A stretch of DNA of 53,400 nucleotides from Caulobacteraceae bacterium (GTDB taxonomy: Bacteria > Pseudomonadota > Alphaproteobacteria > Caulobacterales > Caulobacteraceae): the NCBI GenBank assembly GCA_027483845.1, contig JAIXTR010000608.1:1-53400 (forward strand), in the 5' to 3' direction. The notes beneath the pieces are model-generated. The model was not told the DNA's origin. It did no database searches and saw nothing but the letters and a program-made list of their open reading frames with translations. The number at the start of each line of letters is the position of its first letter. The first letter of the stretch is position 1. This document shows, in pieces, positions 27,440 to 43,906 of the stretch. The translations under genes and the position numbers were made by a program.

Positions 27440-27444
27440 GGGGC

Positions 27445-27475: not shown

Positions 27476-27981
27476 AGCTCTGAAAACCCGACAGCCCATG
27501 CCGCCACCGCCCCCCGTGGCCGACCTCGCCTCAGGGGCTGAGAACGCCCAATCCCCCAATCACGCAGGATCGGCCACGGCGGGGTTCTGGCGTCGCTTTG
27601 CGGCCTTCGCCGGCCTACGGCTATCAGTTGCTCTGCGTCACCGTCATCGCGAACCTGCTCATCGGGCTGAACGTGGCCCGGCTGATCGGCCCAGTCGGCG
27701 GGGTTTAGGCGTAAAGGCGGCATTCGACTCGTGGCGCGTGGTCCGCGAGCGCGAGCCAGCCCGATCCAGCTCTCCGTGGATGGGGAAGGCGGGTCTCCAG
27801 GCGGCGCAGTCGTCGCGCAGCAAGGCGACAGTCTCGTCAATGACCCCGGCATTGTCCCAAAGCCGCGCGTCCACGAAACCGGCTATTTCGTCATCGTTTA
27901 TGCCGCGTCATGGCCAGCACCTTCGTTGGTGGAACGCTTGTCAACGGAGGCTTATTTCAAACTGCGACACCAGCTTGCGGA

Positions 27982-28006
27982 CGAACCAATCGTCGCAATT
28001 CGCGTT
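27982..28006 (+). promoter_or_regulatory. EcfG/sigmaT-like promoter, probably giving a leaderless mRNA
   Basis: CGAAC-N16-CGTT ending 8 nt before ATG 28015; no SD sequence. Confidence 0.65.
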
Positions 28007-28014
28007 TCCGCCCC

Positions 28015-28779
28015 ATGAGATCGCGCTGGCCCGAACGGCTCTGGATTGTCCGTCACGGGGAGAGCGCTGGCAACGTCGCGCGCGACCAGGCCCATGCCGC
28101 GGGGCGGGCGCGGATCGAGATCGAGGACCGGGATGTGGACGTGGCGCTGAGCGCGCTGGGGGAGGCCCAGTCGCTGGCGCTCGGCGGCTGGTTCTCGGCG
28201 ATGCCCCCCGCCGCCCGCCCCGACGTCGTGCTCGCCTCGCCTTACGCCCGTGCCCGGGCAACGGCGCGCCTGATCGGCGAGGCGCACGGTTTTGCCCCTG
28301 ACGCGGTTCAGCCCACAGCGGACGAGCGGTTGCGCGAACGGGAGTTCGGCATCCTGGATCGCCTGACCAGCGCCGGGATTCGGGAGCTGCATCCGGACCA
28401 GGCGGCGTTCCGTCAGCAGCTGGGCAAGTTCTACCACCGGCCGCCGGGCGGTGAGAGTTGGGCCGATGTGATCCTGCGTCTCCGGAGCGCCCTCGACACG
28501 ATCAGCCTGCACTACGCCGGCAGGCGGGTTCTTATCGTTGGCCACCAGGTGGTCGTCCTGTGCCTGCGTTACCTGCTCGAGGACCTGACCGAAGGTCGCC
28601 TGATGGAAATCGACGCCGAGGGCGACGTGGTCAACTGCGGTGTCACCGAATATCGGTTCGACGCGACAATCCCGCCGGATGGGGCGCTGCGCCTCGTACG
28701 ATACAATTTCACAGCGCCGCTGGAGGAGGCGGGCGCAGCCGTCACGTCCGAGCCCGACGCGCCGGTGGCCGCCCGATGA
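28015..28779 (+). CDS. Histidine phosphatase (phosphoglycerate mutase superfamily)
   Basis: WIVRHGES, SPYARARATA, LREREFG, GGES, LIVGH. Confidence 0.93.
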   Translation: MRSRWPERLWIVRHGESAGNVARDQAHAAGRARIEIEDRDVDVALSALGEAQSLALGGWFSAMPPAARPDVVLASPYARARATARLIGEAHGFAPDAVQPTADERLREREFGILDRLTSAGIRELHPDQAAFRQQLGKFYHRPPGGESWADVILRLRSALDTISLHYAGRRVLIVGHQVVVLCLRYLLEDLTEGRLMEIDAEGDVVNCGVTEYRFDATIPPDGALRLVRYNFTAPLEEAGAAVTSEPDAPVAAR

Positions 28780-29678
28780 GCGCACCGCAAGACATCTCGC
28801 TCGAGACGGTCGACGCCTTCCCGCTCCCAGAGCTTAGGGGGGCGGTCGACAAATCGGCGCGGGGACAGGTTCTGGTGCTGGGCGGGGGCGGCGTCGTACC
28901 CGGCGCAGCCCTGCTCACAGGTCTCGCGGCCCTGCGCGTCGGCGCCGGCAAGCTGCAACTCGCGGCGACGGCCGCCACGGCGGCGCCCCTCGGTGTCGCC
29001 GTCCCGGAGGCGGCGATCCTGACCGTCAGCGCAACGCCTGACGGTGAGCTCGCGCCGCAGGCGGCCACGGATTTGTCGCCACGATTGAAGAGCGCTGACG
29101 CGGTCGTGGTCGGCCCCGGCATGATGGACGCCGAGACCGCCGGTCAACTGGCTCTCGGCCTGATGGCCGCCGAGACGACCGCAGCTTTCGTGCTCGACGC
29201 GGCGGCCATGACCGGCGTCGACTACGGCGACCCGCGCGTGAAGCGCCTAGCCGGCCGGCTGGTCATCACGCCCCATGCGGGAGAGATGGCCACGTTGATC
29301 GGTGTCGGGCGCGACGCGGTCGAAGAGGACCCGTTGGGAATGGCGCGGCGCGCCGCCAGCGCCGCCAGCGCCGTCGTCGTTATGAAAGGCGCGGAAACCT
29401 TCATCGTTTCGCCGGACGGACGCGCGTGGCGTCATCAGGACGGCGTCGTGGGCCTCGCCACGTCGGGATCCGGAGACGTGCTGGCGGGGATCATCGGCGG
29501 GCTCCTGGCGCGAGGCGCCTCGCCGCTTGTGGCGTCGGTCTGGGGCGTGTGCATCCATGGGGGCGCGGGCGCCCGCCTGGCTCACACAGTCGGCCCGCTG
29601 GGCTTCCTCGCCCGTGAGCTTCTCGATGAGATTCCGCGTGTGTTGGCGGCTGCCGCCCGAAGCCCTGTTAGGCCATAG
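28776..29678 (+). CDS. nnrD: NAD(P)H-hydrate dehydratase-like protein (YjeF_C)
   Basis: K..RG.VLVLGG, GAGK, VVGPG, VLDA, ITPHAGE, MKG, ATSGSGDVLAG; overlaps the phosphatase stop. Confidence 0.88.
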   Translation: MSAPQDISLETVDAFPLPELRGAVDKSARGQVLVLGGGGVVPGAALLTGLAALRVGAGKLQLAATAATAAPLGVAVPEAAILTVSATPDGELAPQAATDLSPRLKSADAVVVGPGMMDAETAGQLALGLMAAETTAAFVLDAAAMTGVDYGDPRVKRLAGRLVITPHAGEMATLIGVGRDAVEEDPLGMARRAASAASAVVVMKGAETFIVSPDGRAWRHQDGVVGLATSGSGDVLAGIIGGLLARGASPLVASVWGVCIHGGAGARLAHTVGPLGFLARELLDEIPRVLAAAARSPVRP

Positions 29679-29812: not shown

Positions 29813-32206
29813 TCAGCTCGACGCCAGGGCGTCGGACGCGGACAGGACGGGCGCGGCCAGTCGACCCTCGCGTTCGGCAATGCGCCTGAAGGTCGCGAGC
29901 GCCTGCCCGACAACTTGATCCATGTTGTAGTACCGATACGTCGCCAGCCTGCCGACGAACGAGACATTGGGGGTCTCAAGCGCGAGCGCCTCATAGCGCT
30001 TGAACAGGGCCTGGTTCTCCGGCCGCGGCACAGGATAGTAGGGATCGCCGTCGGCGCGCGGGATCTCGTAGGTGATCGTGGTTCGTGGCGACACCTGTCC
30101 GGTCAGGTGCTTGTACTCGCTGATACGCGTGTAGGGCGTCGCCTCGTCGGGGTAGTTCACCGTTCCCACCGATTGGAACTGCTCCATGTCCAGGGTCTCG
30201 TGACGGAACTCAAGACTGCGGTAGGGCAGCTTCCCGAAACGGTTGTCGAAGTACTCGTCGATCGGCCCGGTGAAGATCAGGTGGTCGAAGCTCACGTCCT
30301 CACGCACCTCGTCGAACTCGACGCCCGTCTGGATAGTGATCCCAGGCTGGTCAAGCATCGTCTCGAACATCGCCGTGTAGCCGGCCGCGGGCATCGCCTG
30401 GAAGCGGTCCGTAAAGTAACGGTCGTCCAGGTTGGTGCGGGTCGGCACGCGCGCGGTGACCGATTTGTCCAGTTCCGACGGGTCCATGCCCCACTGCTTG
30501 CGCGTGTAGCCCCGGAAGAACGTTTCATAGAGTTCGCGGCCGACTTGCGAGACCACGACGTCCTCGGAGGTCTGGATGCGCTGGACGGGCTCTGCCCGGC
30601 TCTTGAGATAGGCCGCCGCCTCATCGTCCGATCGCAGGTCGAGGCTGTAAAGCGCGTTCAGTGTCGTGCGGTTGATCGGGATTGGCACCAACAGGCCGTC
30701 CTTCACGCTGGCCAGCACCCGATGCTCGTAGGGGCGCCATGCTGTGAACTGCGAGAGGTGGGCGAAGATCTCCTCGGAGTTCGTGTGGAAAATGTGCGGG
30801 CCGTAGCGGTGCATGAGGACGCCGCCAGCGTCCTTCTCGTCGAAGGCGTTCCCCCCCACATGCGGGCGGCGATCAACGAGGAGGACCCGCTTGCCCAGCT
30901 GGGTGGTCAGCCGCTCGGCCAGGACGGAGCCGGCGAAGCCGGCGCCCACGATCAGATAGTCGAAGGCCTTGCGTCGGCCCGCCGGGCGCACGACGGGCGC
31001 GAACAGGAGCCGGCCGGCGGCGGCGCGGGATAGCTGCACCTTGGCGATCTGTTGCTGCATGCGCTCGAACGTCTGGTCCCACGACATTGAGGCCAGCACC
31101 GCGTCGGCTTCTTGCAGCCACGCGCCACGCAGGCTGCTCAATTTGAGCGCAGCCGCGCACGCCTCGACAAACGCCGCAGGCGTGCTCGCGACCTTCACGC
31201 CCTCGAGGTCGCCATAGTGACGAATTACGTCACAGATCGGTGTCGACACCACGGGCCGCCCACCGGCCAGGTACTCCGGGGTTTTGGTCGGACTGATGAA
31301 GCGGGTCGCCTCATTGATCGCGAACGGCATGAGCGCCACGTCCCATCCACGGAGGTAGGCGGGGAGTTGCTCGTAGGTCTTGCCGCCCAGGTAGTGGAGG
31401 TTGGGCCGCCGCGGAAGGTCGGCCGGGTCGATCTTCACGACCGGGCCGACGATCACGAGGCTCCAGTCAGGCCTGGCGTCTGCGATCGCAGCGAGCAGGT
31501 TCAGATCCATGCGCTCGTCCACCACGCCATAGAATCCGAGACGGGGTCCGGGTATCGCGGCCTGGTCTGCGGGAGGAGGCTGCTGGGTCCGGGCCGTGGC
31601 GAAATGGCTGCGATCGACGCTGGACGGAAACGGGTGGATGTTGGCGTGCTTGTCGCGCTTGGCTTCCCACAGACTGTACCCGCCCGTGAACACCACGTCG
31701 GATACCGCAAGGAGTTCGACCTCTAGCCCCACCAGCTCGGCCGGCGCGAACTTGAAATTCGCGAGCTCGTCCATGCAGTCATAGACCGTGCAGGTCGCGT
31801 TCAAATGCCGCGAAAACGGCAGCATCATGGGCGTGTAGTACCAGCGGACAAGGTGGCCCTGCGCCGTTCCGAGGATCCGATCGAGCATGCCGCGCAGGAC
31901 CGAGTCGCGGGCGCCTCCCAGGTCCTCCGGCGTGAGCCGGGGCGTCGCGATGACAACCCCTGAGTCCTGACAGATGCGGATCAGCAATTCGGAAGCCTCG
32001 CCCGCCGCGGCGGGCACAGGTTCCTCCCAGTAGATCACCCGGCGGTCCCGGGCGAAGCGCGACATCAAGTGCTGCGGCCGCTGGAAGACGAAATCCCAGC
32101 GCAGGTGCGAGAAGCAGATCAACGTGGCCCGCTGTCGAGGGACACCCCCGTTCGTCAGGGGGGAGCCGAGCGCTTTCGCTATCTTGGGCGTGAACTGTCT
32201 ATTCAA
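29813..32206 (-). CDS. glf: Fusion: GT-B glycosyltransferase plus UDP-galactopyranose mutase
   Basis: N-half: CFSHLRWDFVFQRPQHLM, YDCMDEL, ISPTKTPEYLAGGRPVVST. C-half: GAGFAG, HRYGPHIFH, YTRKQWG, PYYP, GRLATYRYYNMDQ. Confidence 0.93.
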   Translation of the reverse strand: MNRQFTPKIAKALGSPLTNGGVPRQRATLICFSHLRWDFVFQRPQHLMSRFARDRRVIYWEEPVPAAAGEASELLIRICQDSGVVIATPRLTPEDLGGARDSVLRGMLDRILGTAQGHLVRWYYTPMMLPFSRHLNATCTVYDCMDELANFKFAPAELVGLEVELLAVSDVVFTGGYSLWEAKRDKHANIHPFPSSVDRSHFATARTQQPPPADQAAIPGPRLGFYGVVDERMDLNLLAAIADARPDWSLVIVGPVVKIDPADLPRRPNLHYLGGKTYEQLPAYLRGWDVALMPFAINEATRFISPTKTPEYLAGGRPVVSTPICDVIRHYGDLEGVKVASTPAAFVEACAAALKLSSLRGAWLQEADAVLASMSWDQTFERMQQQIAKVQLSRAAAGRLLFAPVVRPAGRRKAFDYLIVGAGFAGSVLAERLTTQLGKRVLLVDRRPHVGGNAFDEKDAGGVLMHRYGPHIFHTNSEEIFAHLSQFTAWRPYEHRVLASVKDGLLVPIPINRTTLNALYSLDLRSDDEAAAYLKSRAEPVQRIQTSEDVVVSQVGRELYETFFRGYTRKQWGMDPSELDKSVTARVPTRTNLDDRYFTDRFQAMPAAGYTAMFETMLDQPGITIQTGVEFDEVREDVSFDHLIFTGPIDEYFDNRFGKLPYRSLEFRHETLDMEQFQSVGTVNYPDEATPYTRISEYKHLTGQVSPRTTITYEIPRADGDPYYPVPRPENQALFKRYEALALETPNVSFVGRLATYRYYNMDQVVGQALATFRRIAEREGRLAAPVLSASDALASS

Positions 32207-32321
32207 GTGAGGTCCCTCGAGCTGGGCTTGGTGAAGTCGCGGATCTGCGTCGGCGAAGAGGGATGAGACACCGTAGGGTGCGGTCTGAGATCTTTCGCGG
32301 GCGGGGCATGCCGGGCGTTCC

Positions 32322-33392
32322 CTAAGCTGCGAATTGCGAACGGAGTTCCGGCTGCCGCTGGCGGCGCCCGGCGCCGTAGGCCGGCTGCGATTCCCAGCGC
32401 ACGGCGTCGGTGACGATGCGGTCGAGCGCCGAGCATGTCGCCCGCCAGCCGAGCAGGGTCTGAGCCCGGGCCGGGTTCGCCACCAGGCTGGCCGGATCTC
32501 CTGTCCGTCGCGGCCCCTGAACAGTCGGGACGGGCGAGCCGACGGCCGCGCCGACCGTCCTGATCACGTCTCGTACGGAGCAGCCAAACCCGGTGCCGAC
32601 ATTGATGGCCTCGAAGGCGCCGGGCGCCAGCGCCGCGCGGACGGCGGCCACATGCGCAGCGGCCAGATCGGTCACATGGATGTAGTCGCGCAAGCAGGTG
32701 CCGTCGGGCGTGTCGAAGTCATCGCCGAAAATTGTCAGCGCGGGGCCGTCGCCCATGGCCGCGGCGATCGCGAGGGGAAGTAGGTGCGTCTCCGGTTCAT
32801 GGGCTTCGCCGATAAGGCCGCTCGGATCCGCTCCGGCGGCGTTGAAGTAGCGAAGCACCACCGCGCTCAGGCCGTAGGCGCGGCAATGAGCCTGGATCAA
32901 CCGCTCCCCCGCCAACTTGGTGTCCCCATAGGGGCTGGCGGGATCCTTCGCCGCGGTCTCAGGAATCGTCTCGAGGGCCGTGCGCCCCGCGCTTCCGTAG
33001 ACAGCGGCGCTGGATGAGAACACCAAGCGCGGCACGCGCCGCGCGGCTAGCGCCGACAGCAGTCGGCCCGTGCCGGTCACGTTGACGTCCCAGAAGAGGT
33101 CGGGGCGGGTCACGGACCGCCCGACCTCGATCAGACCGGCGAAATGTACGACCGCGGCCACAGGGTAGGCGTCCAGGGCGGCGGCCACGGCGTCGGCATC
33201 GCGAATGTCGCCGTGGCAGAACGGCCCCCAACGCACGGCTTCCCGGAACCCGGAACTGAGGTTGTCGAATACGACGGGAAGAAAATTGGCTTCGGCGAGG
33301 GCCTTGGCGGTGTGAGCGCCGATGTAGCCCGCACCACCAGTTACCAATACGACGGGTCTGCCGGAATCCATGAACGTGACAAGGCGGTCCAA
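32322..33392 (-). CDS. galE: UDP-glucose 4-epimerase
   Basis: TGGAGYIG, HFAG, FSSSAAVYG, YGDTK, LRYFNAAG, DGTCLRDYIHV. Start may be the ATG at 33371. Confidence 0.92.
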   Translation of the reverse strand: MDRLVTFMDSGRPVVLVTGGAGYIGAHTAKALAEANFLPVVFDNLSSGFREAVRWGPFCHGDIRDADAVAAALDAYPVAAVVHFAGLIEVGRSVTRPDLFWDVNVTGTGRLLSALAARRVPRLVFSSSAAVYGSAGRTALETIPETAAKDPASPYGDTKLAGERLIQAHCRAYGLSAVVLRYFNAAGADPSGLIGEAHEPETHLLPLAIAAAMGDGPALTIFGDDFDTPDGTCLRDYIHVTDLAAAHVAAVRAALAPGAFEAINVGTGFGCSVRDVIRTVGAAVGSPVPTVQGPRRTGDPASLVANPARAQTLLGWRATCSALDRIVTDAVRWESQPAYGAGRRQRQPELRSQFAA

Positions 33393-33484
33393 GCCTCTCC
33401 GTTCCAGCTCCTAACAATGGATAGGCCGTGGAACGCGAACCGCTTTCCGGTTCTTGCTTGCCCAGTTTACGGGAAGGCTATGCC

Positions 33485-35731
33485 ATGACGGAGCTGGAGC
33501 TCTGGGGCGGTCACGAGTGTACCGTGAACCGGGTCGGCGATCGGTTCTACGATCAGACCGTGGCGTCAGGCCATGCACATCGGATCGACGACCTGGACCG
33601 CTTCGCGAAGCTTGGCCTAAAGACGCTTCGATACCCGGTGCTGTGGGAACGAGTCGCGCCCGAGACGCCGGAAACATGCGATTGGCGTTGGACAGATGTC
33701 CGGCTTGCGCGCCTGCGCGAGCTACAGGTACGCCCGATCGCCGGCCTCCTGCATCACGGAAGCGGCCCCCGTTACACCAGCCTGTCCGACGAGGGATTTG
33801 CGCCGGCTTTCGCCCGCTTTGCGCGTGCTGCGGCGGAGCGTTATCCCTGGATCACGGACTGGACCCCGATCAACGAGCCTTTGACCACGGCGCGCTTTTC
33901 CGCGCTCTACGGGCACTGGTATCCGCACAGACGAGACGAGCGCGCTTTCTGGGCCGCCGTGCTGAACCAGATTGAGGCCGTGGGATTGGCAATGCGCGAG
34001 ATCCGTGCGGTCAATCCCGAGGCCCAACTCATCCAAACCGAAGACCTGGGTCGCACCTACGCCACGCGCGCGATGGCGCACCAGGCTGACTTCGACAACG
34101 CCCGACGCTGGATGACCTGGGACCTGCTCTGCGGACGGGTGACGGCGGATCACCCGCTTTGGAGTCGCCTCGACGGGTTCGGTTTCGGAGACCGGCTTCG
34201 TCGCCTGCACGAGGCCCCCTGTCCGCCTAACGTCATTGGTGTGAACCACTACCTCACCAGTGATCGCTTCCTTGACCACCGCGCCGCAGCCTACCCCCCG
34301 GAACGGCAGGGCGGGAACGGCTTCATGGCGTTCGCCGACGTGGAAGCGATCCGCGTCACCGCGCCCGCGCCCGCCGGCCTAGAGGGTGTCCTGGATGAAG
34401 CCTGGCGACGCTACGGGCGACCGCTGGCGGTGACCGAAGCTCACAACGGCTGCACCCGGGAAGAGCAGGTGCGTTGGTTGCGGGAAGCGTGGGACGTGGC
34501 GGAGCGCTTGCGGGCTCGGGGCGCCGACGTCCGCGCGGTGACCGCCTGGGCGCTGCTGGGGTCCCACAACTGGAATGGCCTCCTGACCCGCGAGGGCGGA
34601 CACTATGAGCCCGGGGCGTTCGACGTCACCGGACCCACACCCCGGGCCACGGCCTTGGCCGGCGAGATTAAGCGGCTCGCAACGGGTCGAGGATCCCGAC
34701 ATCCCGCCACCGAGGGCCCTGGATGGTGGCGCCGGGACGTTCGGTTCGAGTTCAAGCCGGTGTTCCGCTGGCCGGTCACGCCCGAGGCGCGACCGTCGTG
34801 GCGGAACACCCCGAGCGGCGAGCGGCCACTGCTCATCACCGGCGCCACCGGTACGCTTGGCCGGGCGATCGCCCGCGCCTGCGAGTGGCGTGGCATCGCC
34901 TATAAGTTGACGACCAGGGCCGAACTCTCGCTCGACGACGCCGGGTCAATCGCGCGCGCCCTCGACGACAGCCGCGCGTGGGGCGTCGTCAATGCGGCGG
35001 GCTGGGTGCGCGTCGATGAAGCGCAATCCCAGCCGGCGGCGTGCTTTGCAGCGAACCACCTTGGCGCGGTTCGGCTCGCGCGCGCGTGTGCCGAGCGCCG
35101 TCTTCCCTTCGTCGGATTCTCCTCGGATCTGGTCTTCAACGGCGCGAAGGGCAGCCCCTATGTCGAGCGCGACGCGCCCACGCCGCTCAACGTCTATGGC
35201 ACGAGCAAAATGCGCGCGGAGCGCGAGATCCTTGCAGGCGGCGGATCTCCCCTGATAATCCGCACGGCCGCGTTCTTTTCACCCTACGATCCGCACAATT
35301 TCGCGGCCCATGTGCAGCGGACGCTCGGTGAGGGGCGGCGTCTCGATGCGCCGGACGTTACGATTACCCCGACCTATGTGCCGGACCTTGTGGACCGCAC
35401 GCTCGATCTCCTGATCGATGGCTGCCAGGGCCTTCGCCATGTGGTCAATGACGGAGTCGTGTCTTGGGCGGAGTTCGCTCGCCGCCTGGCGCGCGCCATG
35501 GACCTCGATGCCGATTTGGTGGACGAGCGCCCGGCCGCATATTTCGACTGGCCGGCCGTCCGGCCCCCGAACGCCGCCATGACGAGCGAGCTCCAGGGTC
35601 CGCTTCCTTCCCTCGATGATGCTATCGCCCGGTTCGCGGCGTTGGCGCATGTGGAGGACCTTACCCCCGATACGCTCCCGCCTCCGGCCGTGGCGACGAC
35701 CGCACCCTTCCAACGGGTGCGACGACGCTGA
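33485..35731 (+). CDS. Fusion: GH1-like glycoside hydrolase plus RmlD-like NDP-sugar reductase
   Basis: GH1-like part: WGGHE, LRYPVLWE, TPINEP (acid/base), VTEAH (nucleophile). RmlD-like part: ITGATGTLG, SSDLVF, YGTSK. Confidence 0.88.
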   Translation: MTELELWGGHECTVNRVGDRFYDQTVASGHAHRIDDLDRFAKLGLKTLRYPVLWERVAPETPETCDWRWTDVRLARLRELQVRPIAGLLHHGSGPRYTSLSDEGFAPAFARFARAAAERYPWITDWTPINEPLTTARFSALYGHWYPHRRDERAFWAAVLNQIEAVGLAMREIRAVNPEAQLIQTEDLGRTYATRAMAHQADFDNARRWMTWDLLCGRVTADHPLWSRLDGFGFGDRLRRLHEAPCPPNVIGVNHYLTSDRFLDHRAAAYPPERQGGNGFMAFADVEAIRVTAPAPAGLEGVLDEAWRRYGRPLAVTEAHNGCTREEQVRWLREAWDVAERLRARGADVRAVTAWALLGSHNWNGLLTREGGHYEPGAFDVTGPTPRATALAGEIKRLATGRGSRHPATEGPGWWRRDVRFEFKPVFRWPVTPEARPSWRNTPSGERPLLITGATGTLGRAIARACEWRGIAYKLTTRAELSLDDAGSIARALDDSRAWGVVNAAGWVRVDEAQSQPAACFAANHLGAVRLARACAERRLPFVGFSSDLVFNGAKGSPYVERDAPTPLNVYGTSKMRAEREILAGGGSPLIIRTAAFFSPYDPHNFAAHVQRTLGEGRRLDAPDVTITPTYVPDLVDRTLDLLIDGCQGLRHVVNDGVVSWAEFARRLARAMDLDADLVDERPAAYFDWPAVRPPNAAMTSELQGPLPSLDDAIARFAALAHVEDLTPDTLPPPAVATTAPFQRVRRR

Positions 35732-35738
35732 GGGCCGA

Positions 35739-36362
35739 TCAGGGTAGCGCGCGCGCCGCCGCAACCGCCCGAGCGGCCTTTGCAGCGGTGTCCTCCGGGG
35801 TCTGTCCCGGGCGGTAGAGTTCGCCGCCCAGGCCGAAGGCGCGCGCGCCTGCCGCCCACCAGTCGGCTAAACTGTCCGGACCGACGCCCCCGACAGCCCA
35901 TATGGTCGCCTCCGGCGGAAGAACCGCGGTCAGCTGTCGCAGATGGCTGGCCCCGTAGGTGCTCGCGGGGAACAGCTTCAGATGGCGCGCGCCGGCCTCG
36001 CAGGCGGCGAAGGCTTCGGTCGCGGTGGCGAAGCCCGGGGCCGGGTCAAGCCTCAGCTGGACCGCGCGGCTGATCACGTCCGCACTTGTGTTCGGCGAGA
36101 CGATGATGCGACCGCCAGCGGCGGCGACGGCCTCGACCTGTCGCGGTGTGAGCACCGTGCCCGCCCCGACGGCCATGCGGGTCCCGAAGACGTCCGCGAT
36201 GCGGCGTATGCTCTCCAGGGGGTTTGGCGAGTTGAGGGGCACCTCAACGCCGCGCACGCCCGCGTCATAGAGCGCCTCGACGTGCGGCACGGTCTCCTCC
36301 AGGCCGATGCCGCGCAGGATGGCGACCAGCGGACATTCGGCGAGGGCGGCTTCGAGCTTCAT
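35739..36362 (-). CDS. dgoA: 2-dehydro-3-deoxy-6-phosphogalactonate aldolase
   Basis: LVAILRG, EVPLNSP, GAGTV, IVSPN, LKLFPA, AVGGV; adjacent to dgoK. Confidence 0.92.
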   Translation of the reverse strand: MKLEAALAECPLVAILRGIGLEETVPHVEALYDAGVRGVEVPLNSPNPLESIRRIADVFGTRMAVGAGTVLTPRQVEAVAAAGGRIIVSPNTSADVISRAVQLRLDPAPGFATATEAFAACEAGARHLKLFPASTYGASHLRQLTAVLPPEATIWAVGGVGPDSLADWWAAGARAFGLGGELYRPGQTPEDTAAKAARAVAAARALP

Positions 36363-37279
36363 CGCAGGCTCCGGGCGCGGTGCAAGGCGCTGAGACCAGC
36401 CACCGCGGCGGCTTCGCCGTCAAAGATCTCCGAGTCCACGCCCTGCAACTCCAGGGCGCGCGCGTAGAGGCCGCAGAGCCGGGGGTCGCCCAGCAAGGCG
36501 ACCGTCGCGCCAGAGGTCTCGCCGAGCAGGCGGGGCGTCGCCGCCACGTCCGCGCCCACGAGCAGTCCGGACAGATAGCTCGCTGTCGTTGCGGCAGGGC
36601 GACCCAGCCCGACCACACGCGACCGCGCCGTGAACAGACGCGCGGCAAGCGCATCGCCCCGACCGGCCGCGGCCACGCCTTCGTCGAACGCGACCGGATC
36701 GTCCGGCGGCGTCGAGGTGCGCAGCACACCGTGCTGGCGCAGCAGCGCGAAGAGCTCGCCTGTCATCGCGGTGACGAACCCGGTCAGTCGGCCGTCCTCC
36801 ACCTGCATCCACTTCGCATGGGTCCCCGGATGGCAGACCAGGCGGCGGCCCACCGCCCGGTCGGGCGCCCCGGCCAGCCAGCCGAACAACTGGGTCTCCT
36901 CGCCGCGCATGACGTCACCTTGGCCGTTGAAGCCAGGGGCGCAAACGCCGGGAACGATGCGGACCAAGCCGTCGGTGTCGTCGACCGTCGCCAATTGGGC
37001 CGCGAGGTCGTCGAGGCCTGCCGGCAACTCGACGTAGGGCGCGGCCGTCCAGCCGAGCGTGGATCCGATCATGCCGCAGAGCAGGGCAGGCGTGCGGGCT
37101 CCCCCAAGCGCCGGTAGGACGTCCTCACGGAAGCGGCGGGGCGCTTCCCCCGCCTTGAGCCGCCCCACGCCGAAGGGGAACACCCGCGCCGTCAGGATTC
37201 TTCCGGCGTCATCAAGCGCCCAAGCCCGCAGATTGGTGGTGCCCCAGTCGCAGGCGATGAGCGACGCGGCGGCTGTCAC
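36359..37279 (-). CDS. dgoK: 2-dehydro-3-deoxygalactonokinase
   Basis: CDWGTTNLRAW, GMIGS..GW, DVMRGEETQ, PGTHAKW, MTGELF. Confidence 0.93.
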   Translation of the reverse strand: MTAAASLIACDWGTTNLRAWALDDAGRILTARVFPFGVGRLKAGEAPRRFREDVLPALGGARTPALLCGMIGSTLGWTAAPYVELPAGLDDLAAQLATVDDTDGLVRIVPGVCAPGFNGQGDVMRGEETQLFGWLAGAPDRAVGRRLVCHPGTHAKWMQVEDGRLTGFVTAMTGELFALLRQHGVLRTSTPPDDPVAFDEGVAAAGRGDALAARLFTARSRVVGLGRPAATTASYLSGLLVGADVAATPRLLGETSGATVALLGDPRLCGLYARALELQGVDSEIFDGEAAAVAGLSALHRARSLR

Positions 37280-38028
37280 GTTCGCCCCGCATCGACCACT
37301 AGGTTCTGCCCAGTGATCATCCGAGCGTCATCGGAGGCGAGGAAGAGCGCGGCGCGCGCGATATCATCGGGCGTCAACCGACCCGGCAGGGCGACCTTGC
37401 TGGCCCAATCGGCTTCGGCCTCCGGCGTCAGCCAGAGAGCGAGCTGCCGTTCGGTGACGACCCACCCTGGAGACAGGGCGTTGACACGGATCCGGTCGGG
37501 TCCCCATTCGCGAGCCAAGCCCTTGGACAGTGCATTGATCGCGCCCTTGGCCGCGACGTAGGTGGCGAGGTGGGCTGGTCCCAGCAGGGCGTTGATCGAG
37601 CTGACGTTGATGATCGCGCCGCCCCCCGCGGCCTGCATCATCGGGTAGACGGCGACGGCTGCGACAAAGGCCGGGTCGAGGTTGACAGCCAGGCCGGTTC
37701 GCCACGCTTCCACGCTGGTGTCGACAGCATCACGGCGGGTGTCGTCGGCGACGTTGTTGATCAGAACGGAGATGGGTCCCAGCGCCGCGGCGGCGGCGGC
37801 CACCTGATGCTCGAGGTCATGCGCGTTCGTCACGTCGCAACGCCCGAACCAGCTGCCGGCCAGCTCGCGGGTCAACGCCTGGCCCGCGTCTGCCTGACGG
37901 TCCACGAAGGCGACCCGAGAGCCCTGGGCATGAAACTGCCGGACAAAGCTGGCGCCGATGCCGGTGGCGCCGCCCGTAACGAACACCACTCGATCCTTCA
38001 GGCTGGGGTGCGCTGCAAACGTCATCAA
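37276..38028 (-). CDS. SDR aldose 1-dehydrogenase, probably D-galactose dehydrogenase
   Basis: PSLKDRVVFVTGGATGIG, NNVADDTR, YVAAK, PGWVVTERQ..LW (XylB-type SDR); substrate inferred from dgoK/dgoA context. Confidence 0.8.
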   Translation of the reverse strand: MMTFAAHPSLKDRVVFVTGGATGIGASFVRQFHAQGSRVAFVDRQADAGQALTRELAGSWFGRCDVTNAHDLEHQVAAAAAALGPISVLINNVADDTRRDAVDTSVEAWRTGLAVNLDPAFVAAVAVYPMMQAAGGGAIINVSSINALLGPAHLATYVAAKGAINALSKGLAREWGPDRIRVNALSPGWVVTERQLALWLTPEAEADWASKVALPGRLTPDDIARAALFLASDDARMITGQNLVVDAGRT

Positions 38029-39749
38029 TGAGATTCACGCGTGACGTCGGAGGTGGACTTGCCCACCAGGAAGTCGAGGTCGGCCCCGCGGTCGGCTTGC
38101 AGCACCGTGTCGATGTAGAGCCGGTACCAGCCGCGCGTGAACGCCGTGGGTTGGCGGACGGCCTCCCGGGCTTGGCGGCGAAGCGCCAATTCCGCATCGT
38201 CCACGAGAAGGTCGAGCGTCCGCCCCGGGCCGTCCAGCACGATCTCGTCGCCATCCAGAACCAGACCAAGGACGCCTCCAGCCTCGGCCTCGGGCGAGAC
38301 GTGTAGGATCACCGTCCCATAGGCGGTGCCGCTCATGCGGGCGTCCGAGATGCGGACCATGTCGCGCACGCCTTGCTGTAGCAGCTTGGGTGGCAGGGCC
38401 ATATTGCCGACCTCGGGCATGCCAGGATAACCCTTTGGGCCGCAGCCCTTGAGCACCAGGATGGAGGTCTCGTCGACTATTAGGTCAGGATCGTCGATGC
38501 GGGCGTGATAGTCCTCGATGGTCTCGAAGACGACCGCGCGGCCGCGATGGGTGAGGAGGTCCGACGTCGCCGCGCTCGGCTTGAGGATCGCACCGTCCGG
38601 GCACAGGTTGCCGCGCAGGACCCAGACGCCAGACGACGGTCCGAAGGGCGCCTGACGCGTGGCGATGACGTCGCGGTTCCAGACCTCAGCGCTCGCAGCG
38701 ATCTCGCCCTGAGTGTGGCCACTGACCGTCACCGCTTGGCGTCGGAAAACCGCGCCCAGCTCCTTCATCACGGCGGGGCAACCACCCGCGTAGCAGAAGT
38801 CCTCCATCAGGTACTTGCCGGACGGCATCAGATTGACCAGCAGGGGGCTCTCGCGGCCGATACGGTCGAAATCCTCTAGGACCAGGTCCACGCCGACGCG
38901 CCCCGCCAGCGCCAGCAAATGCACCACGGCGTTCGTGGAGCCGCCGATCGCGGCGTGCATGAGGATGGCGTTCTCGAACGCCTCCCGGGTCAGGATGTCC
39001 GAGGGTTTAATGTCGTCCTTCACCAACTGGACGATCCGGGCGCCCGTCAGATGCGCCAGCACCTTGCGCCGCGAGTCCACGCCCGGCAGTGCGGCGTTGT
39101 TGGGCAGGCTCATGCCCAGAGCCTCGACCAGGCTGGCCATGGTCGAGGCCGTGCCCATGGTATTGCAGACCCCCGCGCTGCGGCTCATGCCAGACTCCGC
39201 CGACATGAAGTCTCTGAGGGTCATCTCCCCAGCTCGCACAGCTTCGGAAAAGCGCCACACGTCGGTCCCTGACCCGATGTCTCGGCCCTGGAACTTCCCG
39301 TTCAGCATCGGACCGGAGGACACCACCATGGCCGGCAGGTCTGCGCTTGCGGCTCCCATCAGCTGCCCTGGTGTGGTCTTGTCGCACCCGCCCAGCAGAA
39401 CCACGCCGTCGATGGGATTGGCGCGGATCGACTCCTCCACCTCCATGGCCAGAAGGTTGCGGAACAGCATTGCGGTCGGCCGCATCTGCGTTTCCGGCAG
39501 CGACATGGCTGGGAACTCGATCGGCACCCCGCCCGCCTCCCAGACGCCTCGCTTCACGTACTCGGCGAGATCACGCAGGTGGACTTGGCAGGTGACCAGT
39601 TCCGACCATGTGTTGCAGATTCCGATGATCGGCCGGCCGTCGAAGACATGGTCAGGAAGGCCCGTTCCCTTGATCCAGCTGCGGTGGATGAAACCGTCGC
39701 GGTCGAGCTTGCCGTAGCTCTTCCAGCTGCGCGGCGTGCTGTCGGCCAT
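38025..39749 (-). CDS. IlvD/Edd-family sugar-acid dehydratase (L-arabinonate/D-galactonate type)
   Basis: DRDGFIHRSW, GICNTWSEL, GCDKT, CNTMGTASTM, GGSTN, DARMSGTAYG, RESH terminus. Confidence 0.92.
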   Translation of the reverse strand: MADSTPRSWKSYGKLDRDGFIHRSWIKGTGLPDHVFDGRPIIGICNTWSELVTCQVHLRDLAEYVKRGVWEAGGVPIEFPAMSLPETQMRPTAMLFRNLLAMEVEESIRANPIDGVVLLGGCDKTTPGQLMGAASADLPAMVVSSGPMLNGKFQGRDIGSGTDVWRFSEAVRAGEMTLRDFMSAESGMSRSAGVCNTMGTASTMASLVEALGMSLPNNAALPGVDSRRKVLAHLTGARIVQLVKDDIKPSDILTREAFENAILMHAAIGGSTNAVVHLLALAGRVGVDLVLEDFDRIGRESPLLVNLMPSGKYLMEDFCYAGGCPAVMKELGAVFRRQAVTVSGHTQGEIAASAEVWNRDVIATRQAPFGPSSGVWVLRGNLCPDGAILKPSAATSDLLTHRGRAVVFETIEDYHARIDDPDLIVDETSILVLKGCGPKGYPGMPEVGNMALPPKLLQQGVRDMVRISDARMSGTAYGTVILHVSPEAEAGGVLGLVLDGDEIVLDGPGRTLDLLVDDAELALRRQAREAVRQPTAFTRGWYRLYIDTVLQADRGADLDFLVGKSTSDVTRESH

Positions 39750-39803
39750 GCGCCAACCTCTGGTTCTCAACTCCCGCGCTAAACCCGCCAGCCGGCCGAT
39801 GGT

Positions 39804-40652
39804 TCATCCCGCAAACAATGGTATGTGCAGGCCGGGAATTCCGGGTTCGAAGGCGAACAGGGCGCCCGCGAGGGGTTGACGCGTTCGGGCGACGTCCGTC
39901 AGGCCCTGCCAGGCGCTGGTGATATAGAGGGTCGCCAGGTCCGGACCTCCGAACGCGCAGGCTGTCGGCTGTTCGACCGGAAGATGGATCAATCGGTCCA
40001 AGGTCCCGTCAGGTCTATAGCGCACCAGCCGGCCGCCACCCCATTCCGCATTCCAAAGCCCGCCTTCGCGATCCGTCGCGGCGCCATCGGGCTCGGCGGC
40101 GCCTTGGGTTCGGGCGAAGATCCTACGGCGGGTCAAGTCCGCCGTGTCGTAGGCGAACAGCGTCTGCTGCTTGGAATCCGCCAGGTACAGCGTCCCGCCA
40201 TCGGGACTGAAGGCCGTGGCGTTGGCGATGTGGATGCCGCCTAGAGTCTCAACCGTCTCTAGGTCCGGCCCGGTGACATGAACCGAACCCGGCTGGCGTC
40301 CGCCGTTGTCGTCCATCGTGCTCCACCAGAATCGGCCGCGCTGATCGGTCTTGCCGTCGTTGGTGCGAAACCCCGGTGGGAAGGTCATCGGGCGGACCAG
40401 ATCGACAGCCTTGGAGGCCGGGTCGTAGGTCGCCAATCCCGCGTCGGTGGCCATCAGCAAGCCGCCCCTGGCTCTGGCGGCCGCCGCACTGGCGCGGAAG
40501 GGCAGGGCCTGTTCGCTGCAGGTCCCGTCGTGGTCCAGCCAGTGGAGCCGACGACCCTGGATGTCGAACCAATAGAGGCGATCTTCGGCGGCGTTCCAGC
40601 AAGGGCCCTCGCCGAGCCGGTCCTGGGCCTCCACCACAAGTCGCACCGGCAT
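39804..40652 (-). CDS. SMP-30/gluconolactonase-family sugar lactonase
   Basis: LGEGPCW, RTNDG, IANATAFSPDG, PDG..D.EG.LWNA, CAFGG. Confidence 0.92.
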   Translation of the reverse strand: MPVRLVVEAQDRLGEGPCWNAAEDRLYWFDIQGRRLHWLDHDGTCSEQALPFRASAAAARARGGLLMATDAGLATYDPASKAVDLVRPMTFPPGFRTNDGKTDQRGRFWWSTMDDNGGRQPGSVHVTGPDLETVETLGGIHIANATAFSPDGGTLYLADSKQQTLFAYDTADLTRRRIFARTQGAAEPDGAATDREGGLWNAEWGGGRLVRYRPDGTLDRLIHLPVEQPTACAFGGPDLATLYITSAWQGLTDVARTRQPLAGALFAFEPGIPGLHIPLFAG

Positions 40653-40694
40653 CGAAAGGTCCCTTGCGACAATATGCCAGCGCGAGGGTGCGAC

Positions 40695-40720
40695 AACTCG
40701 CCAGCCAATGTTTTAGTTCC
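40695..40720 (-). promoter_or_regulatory. EcfG/sigmaT-like promoter for the lactonase-dehydratase-SDR-dgoKA operon
   Basis: Minus strand GGAAC-N17-AGTT. Confidence 0.55.
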
Positions 40721-40771
40721 GTTCAGGATCCCCGCGGCAATACTCTTCGCGAAGATTCGGGAGGGGTCCCA

Positions 40772-41005
40772 ATGCTGTCGAGCTATTCTGATGTGTTCGC
40801 CATCGAGCACGATCGTCAACACCACGAGATTATCGAGCCCGGCGACCTAGTACGGACAGGCGTCAACCTCTTTCCGCATTTTCGCGTAGTCGCGGTGCAC
40901 GGCGACAAGGCCTGGGTGCGAAACGTCGCCAACGGCGCCGACAGCCTCGCGCTCGTGTCACGCTGTCGAAAAGTCAGCGACCAAGCCCTGATGGCCGCGG
41001 AGTAA
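40772..41005 (+). CDS. Small hypothetical protein (77 aa), SH3/KOW-like
   Basis: GGAGG RBS; IEPGDLVRTG..FRVVAVHGDKAWVRN beta-strand pattern. Confidence 0.65.
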   Translation: MLSSYSDVFAIEHDRQHHEIIEPGDLVRTGVNLFPHFRVVAVHGDKAWVRNVANGADSLALVSRCRKVSDQALMAAE

Positions 41006-41022
41006 AGATCGCGCGTCGCGAC

Positions 41023-41047
41023 TGAACCGGTCGCTGGGTCCAGAGTT
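41023..41047 (+). promoter_or_regulatory. EcfG/sigmaT-like promoter
   Basis: TGAAC-N17-GTT upstream of the GH1 gene. Confidence 0.5.
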
Positions 41048-41103
41048 CTATCCCGATATCCGTCGTAGGCGGCGGAGCGGGAGGACGCGCCATTTCAGCC
41101 TTC

Positions 41104-42396
41104 ATGTTCGCCACGGGAATCGAGAACTCGATACCTCGTATCCAGAACGGCCGGATCCGCGTGGACCAGATGGAGGCCTGCGGCCACTATCGTCAGTGGT
41201 CTCGAGACTTCGACCTGGTGGAGGACCTGGGGCTCGGGTACCTCCGGTACGGCCCGCCGCTCCACACCACCCTATTGGGCCCAGGTCGCTACGATTGGGA
41301 ATTCGCGGATGTGACGTTCGCGGATCTCAAGCGGCGCAACATCATCCCCATCGTCGATCTCTGCCATTTCGGCGTGCCGGACTGGCTGGGCGACTTCCAG
41401 AATCCCGACTTTCCGGAGCAGTTTCGGCGCTACGCCGGGGCGTTCGCCCGGCGGTTTCCCTGGGTGCAGCTCTACACGCCGGTCAACGAGATGTTCATCT
41501 GCGCCCAATTCTCGGCGAAGTATGGCTGGTGGAACGAGCAAGGCTCCACGGATCGCACCTTCGTCACCGCGCTCAAGCACATCGTGAAGGCGAACGTTCT
41601 GGCGATGCAGGAGATTCTTGCCGCTCGGCCGGACGCCATCTTCATTCAGAGCGAGTCCTCGGAGTATTTCCATGCCGAGAACCCCGCCGCGATAAAGCCG
41701 GCCGAGGTCGAAAACTCGAAGCGGTTCCTGTCGCTGGACCTGAACTATGGCCACAGAGTCGATTCGGAGATGTACGAGTACCTGCTCGACAACGGCATGA
41801 CGCAGGCGGAGTACCACTTCTTCCTGGGTAACTCGCTTCGTCACCACTGCATCCTCGGCAACGACTACTACTGGACCAACGAGCATCGGGTGGCGGCCGA
41901 CGGCGGCACCCGGGCCTCTGGCGAGATCTTCGGCTATTCGGAGATCACCCGGCAGTATTACGCCCGCTACCGTCTCCCGGTGATGCACACCGAAACCAAC
42001 AGTGCGGAGGGGCCCAATGGGGACGAGGCGGTCAACTGGCTCTGGAAGGAATGGGCCAACGTCCTTCGGGTGCGCAATGACGGCGTCCCCACGGTCGGGT
42101 TCACCTGGTACTCGCTGACCGATCAGGTGGACTGGGACGTCGGCTTGCGGGAGCAGAACAATCGCATCCATCCCGTGGGCCTCTACGACATGAACCGCGA
42201 GATCCGGCCCGTGGGCCGCTCGTACAAGCAACTGATCCGCGACTGGGGCGAGGTGCTGCCGACGCAGAGCATCTGCCTCTCCGTCCCCGTGGTCCCGCCC
42301 GCCGAGTTCGACGAGCGATCGTCCGCAAGGCGCCGAGACGACGCCCGCCGGCTGAGGTCGGTGGAACTGAGCAACGGCGCGGAACAGATCGACTGA
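41104..42396 (+). CDS. GH1-like glycoside hydrolase, cytoplasmic
   Basis: FATGIENS, LRYG, LCHFG, YTPVNE (acid/base), MHTETN (nucleophile), FTWYSLTDQVDW; no signal peptide. Confidence 0.9.
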   Translation: MFATGIENSIPRIQNGRIRVDQMEACGHYRQWSRDFDLVEDLGLGYLRYGPPLHTTLLGPGRYDWEFADVTFADLKRRNIIPIVDLCHFGVPDWLGDFQNPDFPEQFRRYAGAFARRFPWVQLYTPVNEMFICAQFSAKYGWWNEQGSTDRTFVTALKHIVKANVLAMQEILAARPDAIFIQSESSEYFHAENPAAIKPAEVENSKRFLSLDLNYGHRVDSEMYEYLLDNGMTQAEYHFFLGNSLRHHCILGNDYYWTNEHRVAADGGTRASGEIFGYSEITRQYYARYRLPVMHTETNSAEGPNGDEAVNWLWKEWANVLRVRNDGVPTVGFTWYSLTDQVDWDVGLREQNNRIHPVGLYDMNREIRPVGRSYKQLIRDWGEVLPTQSICLSVPVVPPAEFDERSSARRRDDARRLRSVELSNGAEQID

Positions 42397-42398
42397 GA

Positions 42399-43478
42399 AT
42401 GGTCGAGCCGATCCGCATCGGCGGCTCCCCCCTGGTGGTCTTGCGGGCCCCCGCCCGCGCCGATCGCCCCGCGTTCATTGAAGCCACTGTCGCGCCGGGC
42501 CGTGGCTTCATGCTTCTGCAGGCAAAGCTTGCGCTGCCTTCGGGCCACGTTGTCGATGTCCTTGAGGCGCCCGCTCCCAATGAGGCCGCAGAGGCGCTGA
42601 ACGGTGGCGAGGCGGACTTCGCCGGCAACGCGGCCTTCGCCTTCGGGGGCGCCCTGCTCGCGCCCTTCGCCAACCGCATTCGCGGACGGCCGCTGGCGTC
42701 GTCGCGGGAGATCGAGACCCTGATCGACGGGATGCCGGCTCGCCTTCCGCGCAACTGGGGAGGTCGCGCCCCGGGCGCGGAAACCTACGCCATGCACGGC
42801 CTTATCCTGATGGCGCCGGTGACCTTCATCCAGACGACGCCAGGTTCGGTGGTTGGCCGGCTCTCCGCCGACAGCTTCGCGGGGCGCTGGCCGGGGCGGG
42901 CGGATATGTCTTTCGCCTGGAGCCTTGCCGGGGGCGCATTGAGGCTGCGGGTCGACGCGATCAGTCGAGGCCCGGATGACCTACCAATAGGCCTGGGCTG
43001 GCACCCTTACTTCCGGATCCCGAGCGGACAGCGCGGCCAGGCGCGGCTTCGCGTGCCGGCGGCGCGACGGGTGGCGGTCAACAACTACGACGAGGTCCTG
43101 CCGACCGGCGAGTTGCTCGACCTCACGGACACGCCTCATGACTTCCGGAGCCGCGGAGGGAAGGCGCTCGGCGACATCTACCTCGATGATTGCTTCACGG
43201 ATCTGAAGGCTGTGCGAGGCGTGGCGACGGCGGAACTGTTTGACCCCGAAGCGGGCCTGGTCCTCGGCGTCGCCGCTCGGGCGCCGCCGGTCCGGGCGAT
43301 TCAGATCTACGCGCCTCCAGACAAGGCCTTTGTCGTGATCGAGCCTCAGTTCAATCTCGCGGATCCCTACGGCGCCCAGTGGCCGCCAGGGCAGGAGACT
43401 GGGATGTTGCGCCTGCCGCCGGGAAGCTCGGCTCGGTACGACGTCCGCGTGACCGCACGACGTCTCGAACAGCAATAG
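42399..43478 (+). CDS. Aldose 1-epimerase (mutarotase) family
   Basis: PFANRI, MHG, GWHPYF, LPTG, LDDCF, IEPQ. Confidence 0.87.
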   Translation: MVEPIRIGGSPLVVLRAPARADRPAFIEATVAPGRGFMLLQAKLALPSGHVVDVLEAPAPNEAAEALNGGEADFAGNAAFAFGGALLAPFANRIRGRPLASSREIETLIDGMPARLPRNWGGRAPGAETYAMHGLILMAPVTFIQTTPGSVVGRLSADSFAGRWPGRADMSFAWSLAGGALRLRVDAISRGPDDLPIGLGWHPYFRIPSGQRGQARLRVPAARRVAVNNYDEVLPTGELLDLTDTPHDFRSRGGKALGDIYLDDCFTDLKAVRGVATAELFDPEAGLVLGVAARAPPVRAIQIYAPPDKAFVVIEPQFNLADPYGAQWPPGQETGMLRLPPGSSARYDVRVTARRLEQQ

Positions 43479-43853: not shown

Positions 43854-43878
43854 CGAACCGCGCGCCCAGCCCATCGTT
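43854..43878 (+). promoter_or_regulatory. EcfG/sigmaT-like promoter of the cyanophycin operon
   Basis: CGAAC-N16-CGTT ending 28 bp before ATG 43907, which has a GGAG RBS. Confidence 0.65.
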
Positions 43879-43906
43879 GAGCCCCCGTCGAACTCGGGAG
43901 CGGGTC

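Follow-up and report, generated by a model that had tools for sequence, protein, structure and literature searches.

The synthesis and turnover of stress solutes is known from trehalose (OtsAB and TreF) and sucrose (sucrose-phosphate synthase, SPS, with SPP and invertase). Here we analysed a window of 53,400 nucleotides (the whole stretch of DNA under study) from a Caulobacteraceae bacterium, in which a block of genes at 29813..43478 points to a comparable system based on galactofuranose (Galf). Like the trehalose and sucrose systems, the block brings together a GT-B synthase and a cytoplasmic hydrolase, apparently under a general-stress sigma factor, and SPS is the top fold match of its glycosyltransferase (GT). 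It differs from them by a furanose nucleotide donor that would come from a fused mutase, by a glycosidase-reductase fusion in its core and by having no conserved phosphatase, a neighbouring histidine phosphatase being found in 1 to 2 of 80 related loci. Judged by its sequences, the block resembles a stress-solute system and scores as neither a GH1 β-glucosidase, TuaH or RmlD equivalog nor a surface-glycan cluster. We conclude that the block represents a genuine, uncharacterised system, which is widespread yet patchy and for which there is a concrete candidate product.

Our preferred reading, to which we give about an even chance with a slight lean in its favour, is that of a stress-induced system in the cytoplasm, where GalE, the mutase Glf and the GT build a β-Galf oligosaccharide of the kind described from Nostoc commune, while a GH1-like hydrolase (GH1b) and the dgo operon recycle it. 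GalE would convert UDP-Glc to UDP-galactopyranose (UDP-Galp), Glf would convert UDP-Galp to UDP-Galf, and the GT would add Galf to give a β-galactofuranose oligosaccharide. A second GH1-like enzyme, fused to an RmlD-like reductase (GH1a-RmlD), would act in the build arm by making or processing the chain end. GH1b would release galactose, which a mutarotase, a dehydrogenase, a lactonase, a dehydratase, DgoK and DgoA would take to pyruvate and glyceraldehyde-3-phosphate. If this is true, the locus would supply the genes for an orphan bacterial stress sugar, Galf, mainly known from cell surfaces, would also be an intracellular protectant across phyla, and new transferase and glycosidase subfamilies, possibly with a new lyase-reductase chemistry, would come with it.

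Contig C60, the largest of the 682 contigs of an 84% complete assembly (G000; other G and L numbers denote the genomes and loci compared with it), makes up the window in full, and those homologues of the window's proteins that are named come from Phenylobacterium. The block stands in a run of stress-type genes adjoining a conjugation region, and each of its genes is without a close paralogue elsewhere in G000. Profile searches of the window's open reading frames (ORFs) recovered, at their predicted positions, all ten enzymes that the original prediction had listed from the DNA letters. The gene identities are established, as are the intact catalytic residues, the co-occurrence of the genes, the enrichment of promoter motifs and the occurrence of the core in N. 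commune. By hydropathy, no clear membrane helix was found in the block proteins. Neither GH1-like enzyme showed a hydrophobic N-terminus by the same measure, in agreement with the claim that both lack a signal peptide.

The conserved unit is smaller than the block. A GTDB scan with the GH1a alignment confirmed at least 589 relatives among at least 601 stretches, and the best 80 were taken as the 80 loci referred to throughout; they are skewed to close relatives and many end at contig ends. The core parts were frequent in these loci (GT in 61, Glf in 62, the RmlD domain in 64), the accessory genes far less so (GH1b in 12, GalE in 11, DgoK in 7, the dehydratase in 5). Since the closest relative (L026, with a Glf 97% identical) also has no dgo operon, the core excludes the catabolic operon: it consists of GT, Glf and GH1a(-RmlD), and the dgo operon is an optional accessory. 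The original prediction had taken the entire 13.7-kb block as the unit; with DgoK adjoining the core in so few loci and missing from L026, that extent had to be given up. The whole block is syntenic in three Phenylobacterium genomes (G015, G018, where it lies on a 3.5-Mb contig, and G020), the lactonase not being detected in the blocks of G015 and G020, and it is syntenic or near-syntenic in L027-L029, L041 and L049.

The three-part core spans no fewer than five phyla (Pseudomonadota, Cyanobacteriota, Acidobacteriota, Chloroflexota and Deinococcota), with one Binatia bin in addition; among its carriers are Deinococcus, Gloeothece, Azospirillum, Caballeronia, Sphingobium and Ensifer plasmids. 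Loci of Verrucomicrobiota and Bacteroidota have GT and GH1a without glf within the stretch of sequence examined, and one Deinococcus locus that has GT and glf lacks any GH1-like gene within 8 kb. Among 300 evenly drawn Alphaproteobacteria the GT was found in 2 and GH1a in none; the system is thus patchy, not general.

N. commune provides the candidate product. This cyanobacterium reportedly makes an oligomer that protects enzymes and dried cells, a sugar said to be absent from other cyanobacteria. Going by its title, Wieneke et al. 2007 (PMID 17935705; cited in PMC3826126 and PMC2705711) describes N. commune β-(1→6)-galactofuranosyl oligomers with 1,4-anhydrogalactitol as their end unit, and the accessible text of PMC2705711 groups the oligomer with oligosaccharides hypothesized to aid stress tolerance. 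The remark in the original prediction that no characterised product was known to its author for such a locus must therefore be qualified: a candidate is in print, and what stands is that its genes were not found described, neither these genes nor a paper on the cassette having been found in the literature within reach (subscription journals and bioRxiv supplements lay outside it).

To make a soluble product of Galf only, a cell must have Glf and a Galf transferase; the core is encoded in N. commune. Strain NIES-4072 has a GT-Glf and a GH1a-RmlD fusion with accession numbers two apart, whose GT, Glf, GH1a and RmlD domains are 52, 61, 55 and 47% identical to those of the window and keep their motifs; a GT-Glf fusion is also present in N. 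flagelliforme. GH1a was found in 25 of 101 Nostocaceae genomes, in all 25 at 2.5 kb or less from a GT-Glf fusion, and in the genome of L103, which falls in the same 90% clusters as N. commune, the cassette glf is the sole glf found. The original prediction had put GH1-RmlD in the breakdown arm; its place in the GT-glf cassette in all 25 Nostocaceae genomes that have it moves it to the build arm.

Several observations weigh against assigning the oligomer to the core. Some glf is present in 60 of the 101 Nostocaceae, and just 8 of 25 genomes have no glf beyond the cassette copy; the core of N. commune is known from its two fusion proteins, the sole-glf result being that of the L103 genome; and a Nostoc bin (G458) has GH1a-RmlD with no glf match. 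Moreover, what links the oligomers to the core is co-occurrence, the strain analysed chemically may differ from the one sequenced, and the window comes from a Phenylobacterium-type alphaproteobacterium. We regard the co-occurrence in Nostoc as a strong lead, not proof, for the core making the oligomer.

The Glf domain, encoded with the GT by one gene (29813..32206, minus strand), passes TIGR00031 (378.8 bits, cut-off 303.75), and the solved structure nearest to it is 3HDQ (E 2e-160; 537 bits versus 288 for the next), which we take to be the UDP-galactopyranose mutase DR_A0367 of Deinococcus radiodurans. The domain is predicted to interconvert UDP-Galp and UDP-Galf. Deinococcus plasmids share the GT-glf-GH1a core with the window; the physiological product of the 3HDQ mutase was not found described in the literature, the single mention found being the down-regulation of its gene in a dsr11 mutant, in the accessible part of PMC7022480. 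GalE (32322..33371, minus strand) scores 360 bits against TIGR01179 (cut-off 262) and has no other match above 30% identity in G000. A secreted protein of D. radiodurans, DogH, was considered and rejected, being an unrelated GHL10 protein.

The GT itself (residues ~20-395 of the fusion, of a TuaH-like clade) gave a GT-B model with a pLDDT of 94. Its sequence matched nothing significant among solved structures, and the best fold neighbours of the model were 6KIH (Z 31.2, root-mean-square deviation 3.3, 355 residues aligned) and 6N1X (Z 28.3), the leading ones including two small-molecule enzymes, SPS (Z 31.2) and BshA. GumK, which is presumably an inverting enzyme, reached Z 26.8, level with several retaining GT4 enzymes (Z 26-27). 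The EX7E motif of retaining GT4 glycosyltransferases was not found: the segment reads FISPTKTPEY and only the second Glu is kept (E291, in 80 of 80 sequences), while D123 and D126 are invariant. Two points speak against the preferred reading here. The top structural neighbours are retaining GT4 enzymes, and the GT, should it be retaining, would yield α-Galf and so mismatch the N. commune product; and the comparison with WbbI, the β-1,6-Galf transferase of E. coli, was not significant (E 0.051, probability 1%; control WbbK, E 0.18), the likeness of the GT segment YDCMDEL to HDIDEL of WbbI being only suggestive. What the product is, that its linkage is β and how each of the two GH1-like enzymes acts are inferences of ours.

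The small-molecule neighbours of the GT would also suit a different soluble galactofuranoside, in which a small acceptor, for example a polyol, sucrose or trehalose, receives one or two Galf residues, the GH1-like enzymes are hydrolases and the RmlD domain is regulatory or vestigial. Two other observations favour it: the RmlD domain is often decayed, and RmlD-fold regulatory subunits exist (MAT2B is among the fold matches); and rhizobial versions of the system have two or three GT4 domains more, which means that products must vary. N. commune, however, has both the core and a reported homo-Galf series. Furthermore, GH1a and GT-glf are co-oriented in cyanobacterial and acidobacterial loci, where a plain hydrolase of the product would create a futile cycle. 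We consider this alternative improbable, though substantial enough to be kept in mind.

The family match of the GT raises another alternative, namely that it transfers Galf to a lipid or an envelope glycan, any export genes lying elsewhere and the hydrolases remodelling it. The teichuronic-acid enzyme TuaH (NF047676) is the best family match for all 80 members, but far below its cut-off (71.8 versus 550 bits), and transporters of the MFS type lie near the core in about six loci and an ABC exporter in three. On the other hand, no exporter or flippase is conserved with the core, and a priming transferase, flippase or polymerase was found neither in the window nor in the flanks, which bears out the claim of the original prediction that Wzx/Wzy, an exporter and a priming transferase are missing (none turned up in scans of 46 and 39 ORFs of the window). 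As for the GT, it is acidic (median isoelectric point 5.3 over 80 sequences) and has no membrane helix, and the core is kept across envelopes as different as those of Deinococcus, cyanobacteria, Chloroflexota and proteobacteria. An envelope glycan is, in our view, clearly unlikely.

The two GH1-like enzymes, GH1a (33485..35731, plus strand; two-domain model with pLDDT 93.8 and pTM 0.93) and GH1b (41092..42396, plus strand), both exceed the cut-off of PF00232 (39.4 and 50.3 bits versus 22.6) and are 29% identical to each other. They share with GH1 the TIM-barrel fold and the NEP and TE catalytic motifs, the model of GH1a matching a GH1-type barrel. As the original prediction had seen, both retain the catalytic Glu pair in NEP/NE and TE motifs: E131 and E318 in GH1a (kept in 86/88 and 87/88 homologues), E129 and E297 in GH1b (counted from the ATG at 41104). 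They differ from described GH1 enzymes in being 15-23% identical to those solved and in the fusion of one paralogue to an RmlD-like domain. Neither reaches the β-glucosidase equivalog TIGR03356 (54 and 53 bits, cut-off 478.5), and the sugar-binding motif NFEW is altered in both, Asp replacing Glu (xDW instead of FEW). Further GH1b-like paralogues (L038:5962-7173 and L043:835-2037) have NA or ST in place of NE at the acid/base or neighbouring motif, and are possibly inactive or binding-only.

The second domain of GH1a has an RmlD fold with GxxGxxG and YxxxK intact, and scores below the TIGR01214 equivalog cut-off (169.7 versus 224 bits). No rmlABC genes were found among the recurring neighbours of the core; a separate RmlD-like gene is on contig C273 of G000. 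Our boldest proposal concerns this fusion. Reducing a free sugar gives an open-chain alditol and not an anhydro-alditol, for which the biological route is a lyase followed by a ketoreductase, as in the anhydrofructose pathway with its GH31 α-glucan lyase and anhydrofructose reductase. A glycosidase-reductase fusion therefore fits an anhydro-alditol end, and GH1a might carry out an elimination (lyase) step, followed by keto-reduction by the RmlD-like domain, to form the 1,4-anhydrogalactitol unit. The analogy would lie in a glycosidase-fold lyase followed by a ketoreductase that gives an anhydro-alditol; the fold clan, the sugar and the reductase family differ. We know of no GH1-like lyase. In its full form, the proposal is that the core is the pathway of the orphan anhydrogalactitol-capped β-1,6-Galf oligomers, a stress-protective solute of many phyla, in which GH1a would be the first GH1-fold lyase, RmlD would reduce the keto-anhydro product to prime or cap the chain, and GH1b, throttled by an ATT start codon, would feed the dgo enzymes; as a whole we hold this to be a tentative idea with perhaps one chance in four. 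Against a role of the reductase in every lineage, 58 of 66 close loci and just 25 of 81 diverse representatives have an intact RmlD domain, and it was undetected in 16 of the 80 loci; so frequent a decay speaks for a domain that some lineages can spare or use for regulation.

The pairing of a reductase with a mutase also recalls Fcf1/Fcf2 of E. coli O52, which make dTDP-D-fucofuranose. On that model, favoured by the intact RmlD motifs of the window, the RmlD-like domain and Glf would make a 6-deoxy furanose donor and the product would hold fucofuranose. Yet Glf is far closer to 3HDQ than to other structures, the recurring neighbours are GalE, GalK/GalT and DgoK/DgoA with no recurring RmlA/RmlB, and DgoK requires a 6-OH on its substrate. 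We give this possibility very little credence.

The arrangement of the core varies among lineages. Rhizobium and Sinorhizobium plasmids carry a variant (L131:7733-16836, L129:7727-16845) composed of a GT4, a GT-Glf and a third GH1-like paralogue in fusion with a GT4; L131 has in addition a GT4-GFO-zinc dehydrogenase triple fusion. The GFO domain was considered as an anhydrofructose reductase and set aside as not specific, its top match being DgpA (E 2e-15). No GT-Glf match was found on pSymA of S. meliloti 1021. In two alphaproteobacterial genomes with GT-Glf and without GH1a, the third paralogue directly follows glf. Deinococcus aetherius encodes a TPR/BTAD (SARP-type) regulator between glf and GH1a-RmlD (L018:5404-7281), and a BTAD protein is also found within the split module of L112. 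Cyanobacterial cassettes (L103:726-6014; L073:13143-22214) are extended by a GH2, galT, galK, a PhyH-type dioxygenase, a GH43 and a small unassigned protein.

Across Caulobacteraceae, most GT-positive genomes also have the GH1-like enzymes. The GT was found in 28 of 120 genomes, and GH1a in 24 of these 28 versus 0 of the 92 GT-negative ones; for GH1b the counts were 24 of 28 and 1 of 92. As GT, GH1a and GH1b are mostly unlinked on the chromosome, physical linkage does not account for this co-occurrence. The neighbourhood survey suggested in the original prediction thus came out in favour of both GH1-like enzymes going with GT-Glf genome-wide, but against a fixed dgo operon. Two reservations apply to the preferred reading: related genomes are not independent samples, and DgoK is present in 39 of the 92 GT-negative genomes and absent from 7 of the 28 GT-positive ones (present in 21). 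Within the genus of the window, GH1b was found in 4 of 24 genomes.

The recycling genes of the window recall the De Ley-Doudoroff galactose pathway, with all its functions in the block: the mutarotase (42399..43478, plus strand; aldose 1-epimerase family, PF01263, 67 bits), the dehydrogenase (37276..38028, minus strand), the lactonase (39804..40652, minus strand; SMP-30/gluconolactonase family, PF08450, 224 bits), the dehydratase (38025..39749, minus strand), the 2-keto-3-deoxygalactonokinase DgoK (36359..37279, minus strand; PF05035, 289 bits) and the 2-dehydro-3-deoxy-6-phosphogalactonate aldolase DgoA (35739..36362, minus strand; PRK09140, 262 bits, cut-off 207). It differs from that pathway by an IlvD-type instead of an enolase-type dehydratase, by having no importer or repressor and by EcfG-like promoters. 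The dehydrogenase is a short-chain dehydrogenase/reductase (SDR), probably an aldose 1-dehydrogenase of an XylB-like clade (NF053674, 242.7 bits, below the cut-off of 400; PDB neighbours 4LVU, 9GWU and 7WWX). The dehydratase, of the IlvD/Edd family, falls in the L-arabinonate dehydratase clade, with better matches to 8EJ0 (E 1e-241) and 5J83/9EVV (E 1e-225) than to the galactonate dehydratase 7M3K (E 3e-140). Galactose specificity of the dehydrogenase, lactonase and dehydratase is a matter of interpretation.

The arabinonate clade of the dehydratase is one reason to ask whether the catabolic half is simply a scavenging operon for external galactosides or arabinofuranosides that happens to share the stress island. 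The DgoK count in GT-negative genomes points the same way, as do three genomes (G103, G089 and G058) in which GalM, GH1b and a small protein, with the lactonase, dehydratase and dgoKA, form a module separate from GT-glf, and the dgoK of Sphingomonas melonis, which is not EcfG-dependent according to the accessible part of a published supplement (log2 0.14). But a GH1b in a single GT-negative genome is hard to reconcile with scavenging, G088 brings the two arms together in another gene order, and an EcfG-like motif precedes the dehydratase in 7 of 9 loci. Moreover, flanking genes vary by genome (35 flanking ORFs, chosen from 49 called, in 13 loci), with no recurring sugar importer or LacI-type regulator among them, which favours an internal substrate; one TonB receptor adjoins glf in L029. 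Scavenging of external sugars appears to us to have roughly a one-in-ten prospect.

Returning to an internal Galf oligosaccharide, salvage or GH2 genes adjoin the core in 25 of the 80 loci (De Ley-Doudoroff-type in 10, Leloir in 9, GH2 in 9), and the route depends on the lineage: Caulobacterales have IlvD-type De Ley-Doudoroff genes, sphingomonads an enolase-type dehydratase and/or dgoKA, and cyanobacteria galK/galT with a GH2 in place of the dgo operon. By these neighbourhoods, galactose salvage has been recruited repeatedly by different routes. The 619-residue GH2 matches two β-D-galactofuranosidase structures (E 2e-77), the remaining glucuronidases and LacZ being at 7e-27 or weaker; its top PDB match, which counts against a Galf substrate, is 7XYR, labelled β-glucuronidase (E 7e-99).

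Both arms are likely controlled by EcfG, judging from their upstream sequences. The EcfG motif is given as GGAAC-N16-CGTT in the accessible text of PMC3892343 and as GGAAC-N17-20-GTT in that of PMC6599016. We used a strict pattern close to these, with the site within 250 bases upstream, and a looser one, set after viewing the window and three relatives, that allows TGAAC and a GATT/CATT-type -10. The strict motif precedes the GT in 17 of 40 alphaproteobacterial loci; other groups have it before the GT in 1 of 31, and in G000 it is found in 21 of 2208 upstream windows (~1%). With the looser pattern, sites were found before the GT in 19/40 loci, GH1b in 10/18 (0.21 expected), the dehydratase in 7/9 (0.09 expected), galE in 5/10 and GH1a in 6/52, and before none of the internal genes (glf 0/39, dgoK 0/11, SDR 0/8, galM 0/7). 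The strict pattern lowers GH1b to 2/18 and the dehydratase, whose count relies on the TGAAC variant, to 1/9. Given a pattern density of 0.053 per kb in G000, single sites prove little. PhyR/EcfG-type domains are encoded in G000.

In the window, the two motifs claimed originally are present, one before the lactonase (GGAAC-N17-AGTT, 40695..40720, minus strand), conserved in just 2 of 8 alphaproteobacterial loci, and one before GH1b (TGAAC-N16-AGTT, 41023..41047, plus strand). A third, before the dehydratase (TGAAC-N16-GGTT, 39782..39806, minus strand), had been overlooked, together with a 77-residue ORF and the probable start codon of GH1b. The window's own build-arm motifs weigh against stress control of synthesis, as they are degenerate: the one before galE reads GGAAC-N16-CCTT (33381..33405, minus strand), the orthologous position matching in 5 of 10 loci and not here. 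The published EcfG-regulon tables of S. melonis, M. extorquens and S. granuli contain no 'galactopyranose' entry, and META1_1057 of M. extorquens, an EcfG-dependent candidate, was discarded, its neighbours including neither GT nor glf.

A cytoplasmic Galf product, general-stress control and galactose recycling, as originally proposed, all fit the gene content; recycling at a later time is another matter, since the same sigma-factor motif stands before both arms, so that breakdown could be delayed only post-transcriptionally. The start of GH1b offers a candidate. Four codons before the annotated ATG there is an AT[T/C] in 12 of 17 loci (a count that leaves out L005, which has wrong coordinates) and an ATG in 2, an ATG being found at this position in 11 of 120 database homologues. 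In the window, GGAGG(A) lies six to seven bases upstream of the ATT at 41092 (region 41080-41106, plus strand), and in four loci in-frame stops just upstream rule out a longer extension. GH1b thus probably starts at ATT 41092, and so weak a start codon may lower hydrolase output. The 77-residue protein (40772..41005, plus strand) has no Pfam match and 370 homologues, with 30 invariant columns in 40 sequences; it is encoded directly upstream of GH1b in the Caulobacterales loci, and upstream of it wherever found, which makes it a candidate regulator of the hydrolase.

As for the surroundings, Trb/VirD4 conjugation genes (TraG, a TrbB-like ATPase, TrbE, TrbJ, TrbG, TrbI and a lytic transglycosylase) occupy 1130-14024; a 1005-residue ORF among them (8766-11783) matches TrbG in its last quarter only and is possibly a fusion or a mis-called frame. 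An IS1182-family transposase split over two ORFs follows at 17594-19282 (plus strand). The stress-type island at 19723-29678 encodes a PRK06701 SDR, an isochorismatase, a hemerythrin, two Crp-like regulators, a Mn catalase, a histidine phosphatase and NnrD; in other loci, too, genes for Mn catalase, DUF892, DUF4142 and Crp are repeatedly found close to the core. We do not count the histidine phosphatase/NnrD pair as belonging to the system, these genes being near the core in just 1 and 2 of the 80 loci. On the other side of the block, a strict EcfG-type motif at 43788 (minus strand) faces away from cphA and toward no annotated gene, possibly a small RNA or ORF. A second storage-polymer build-and-break set, composed of cyanophycin synthetase, an asparaginase-type peptidase and cyanophycinase, lies at 43877-48355 (plus strand), with cphA also near the core in L026, L045 and L047. 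The ethanolamine ammonia-lyase genes eutBC (49469-51603, minus strand) are downstream of a TonB receptor.

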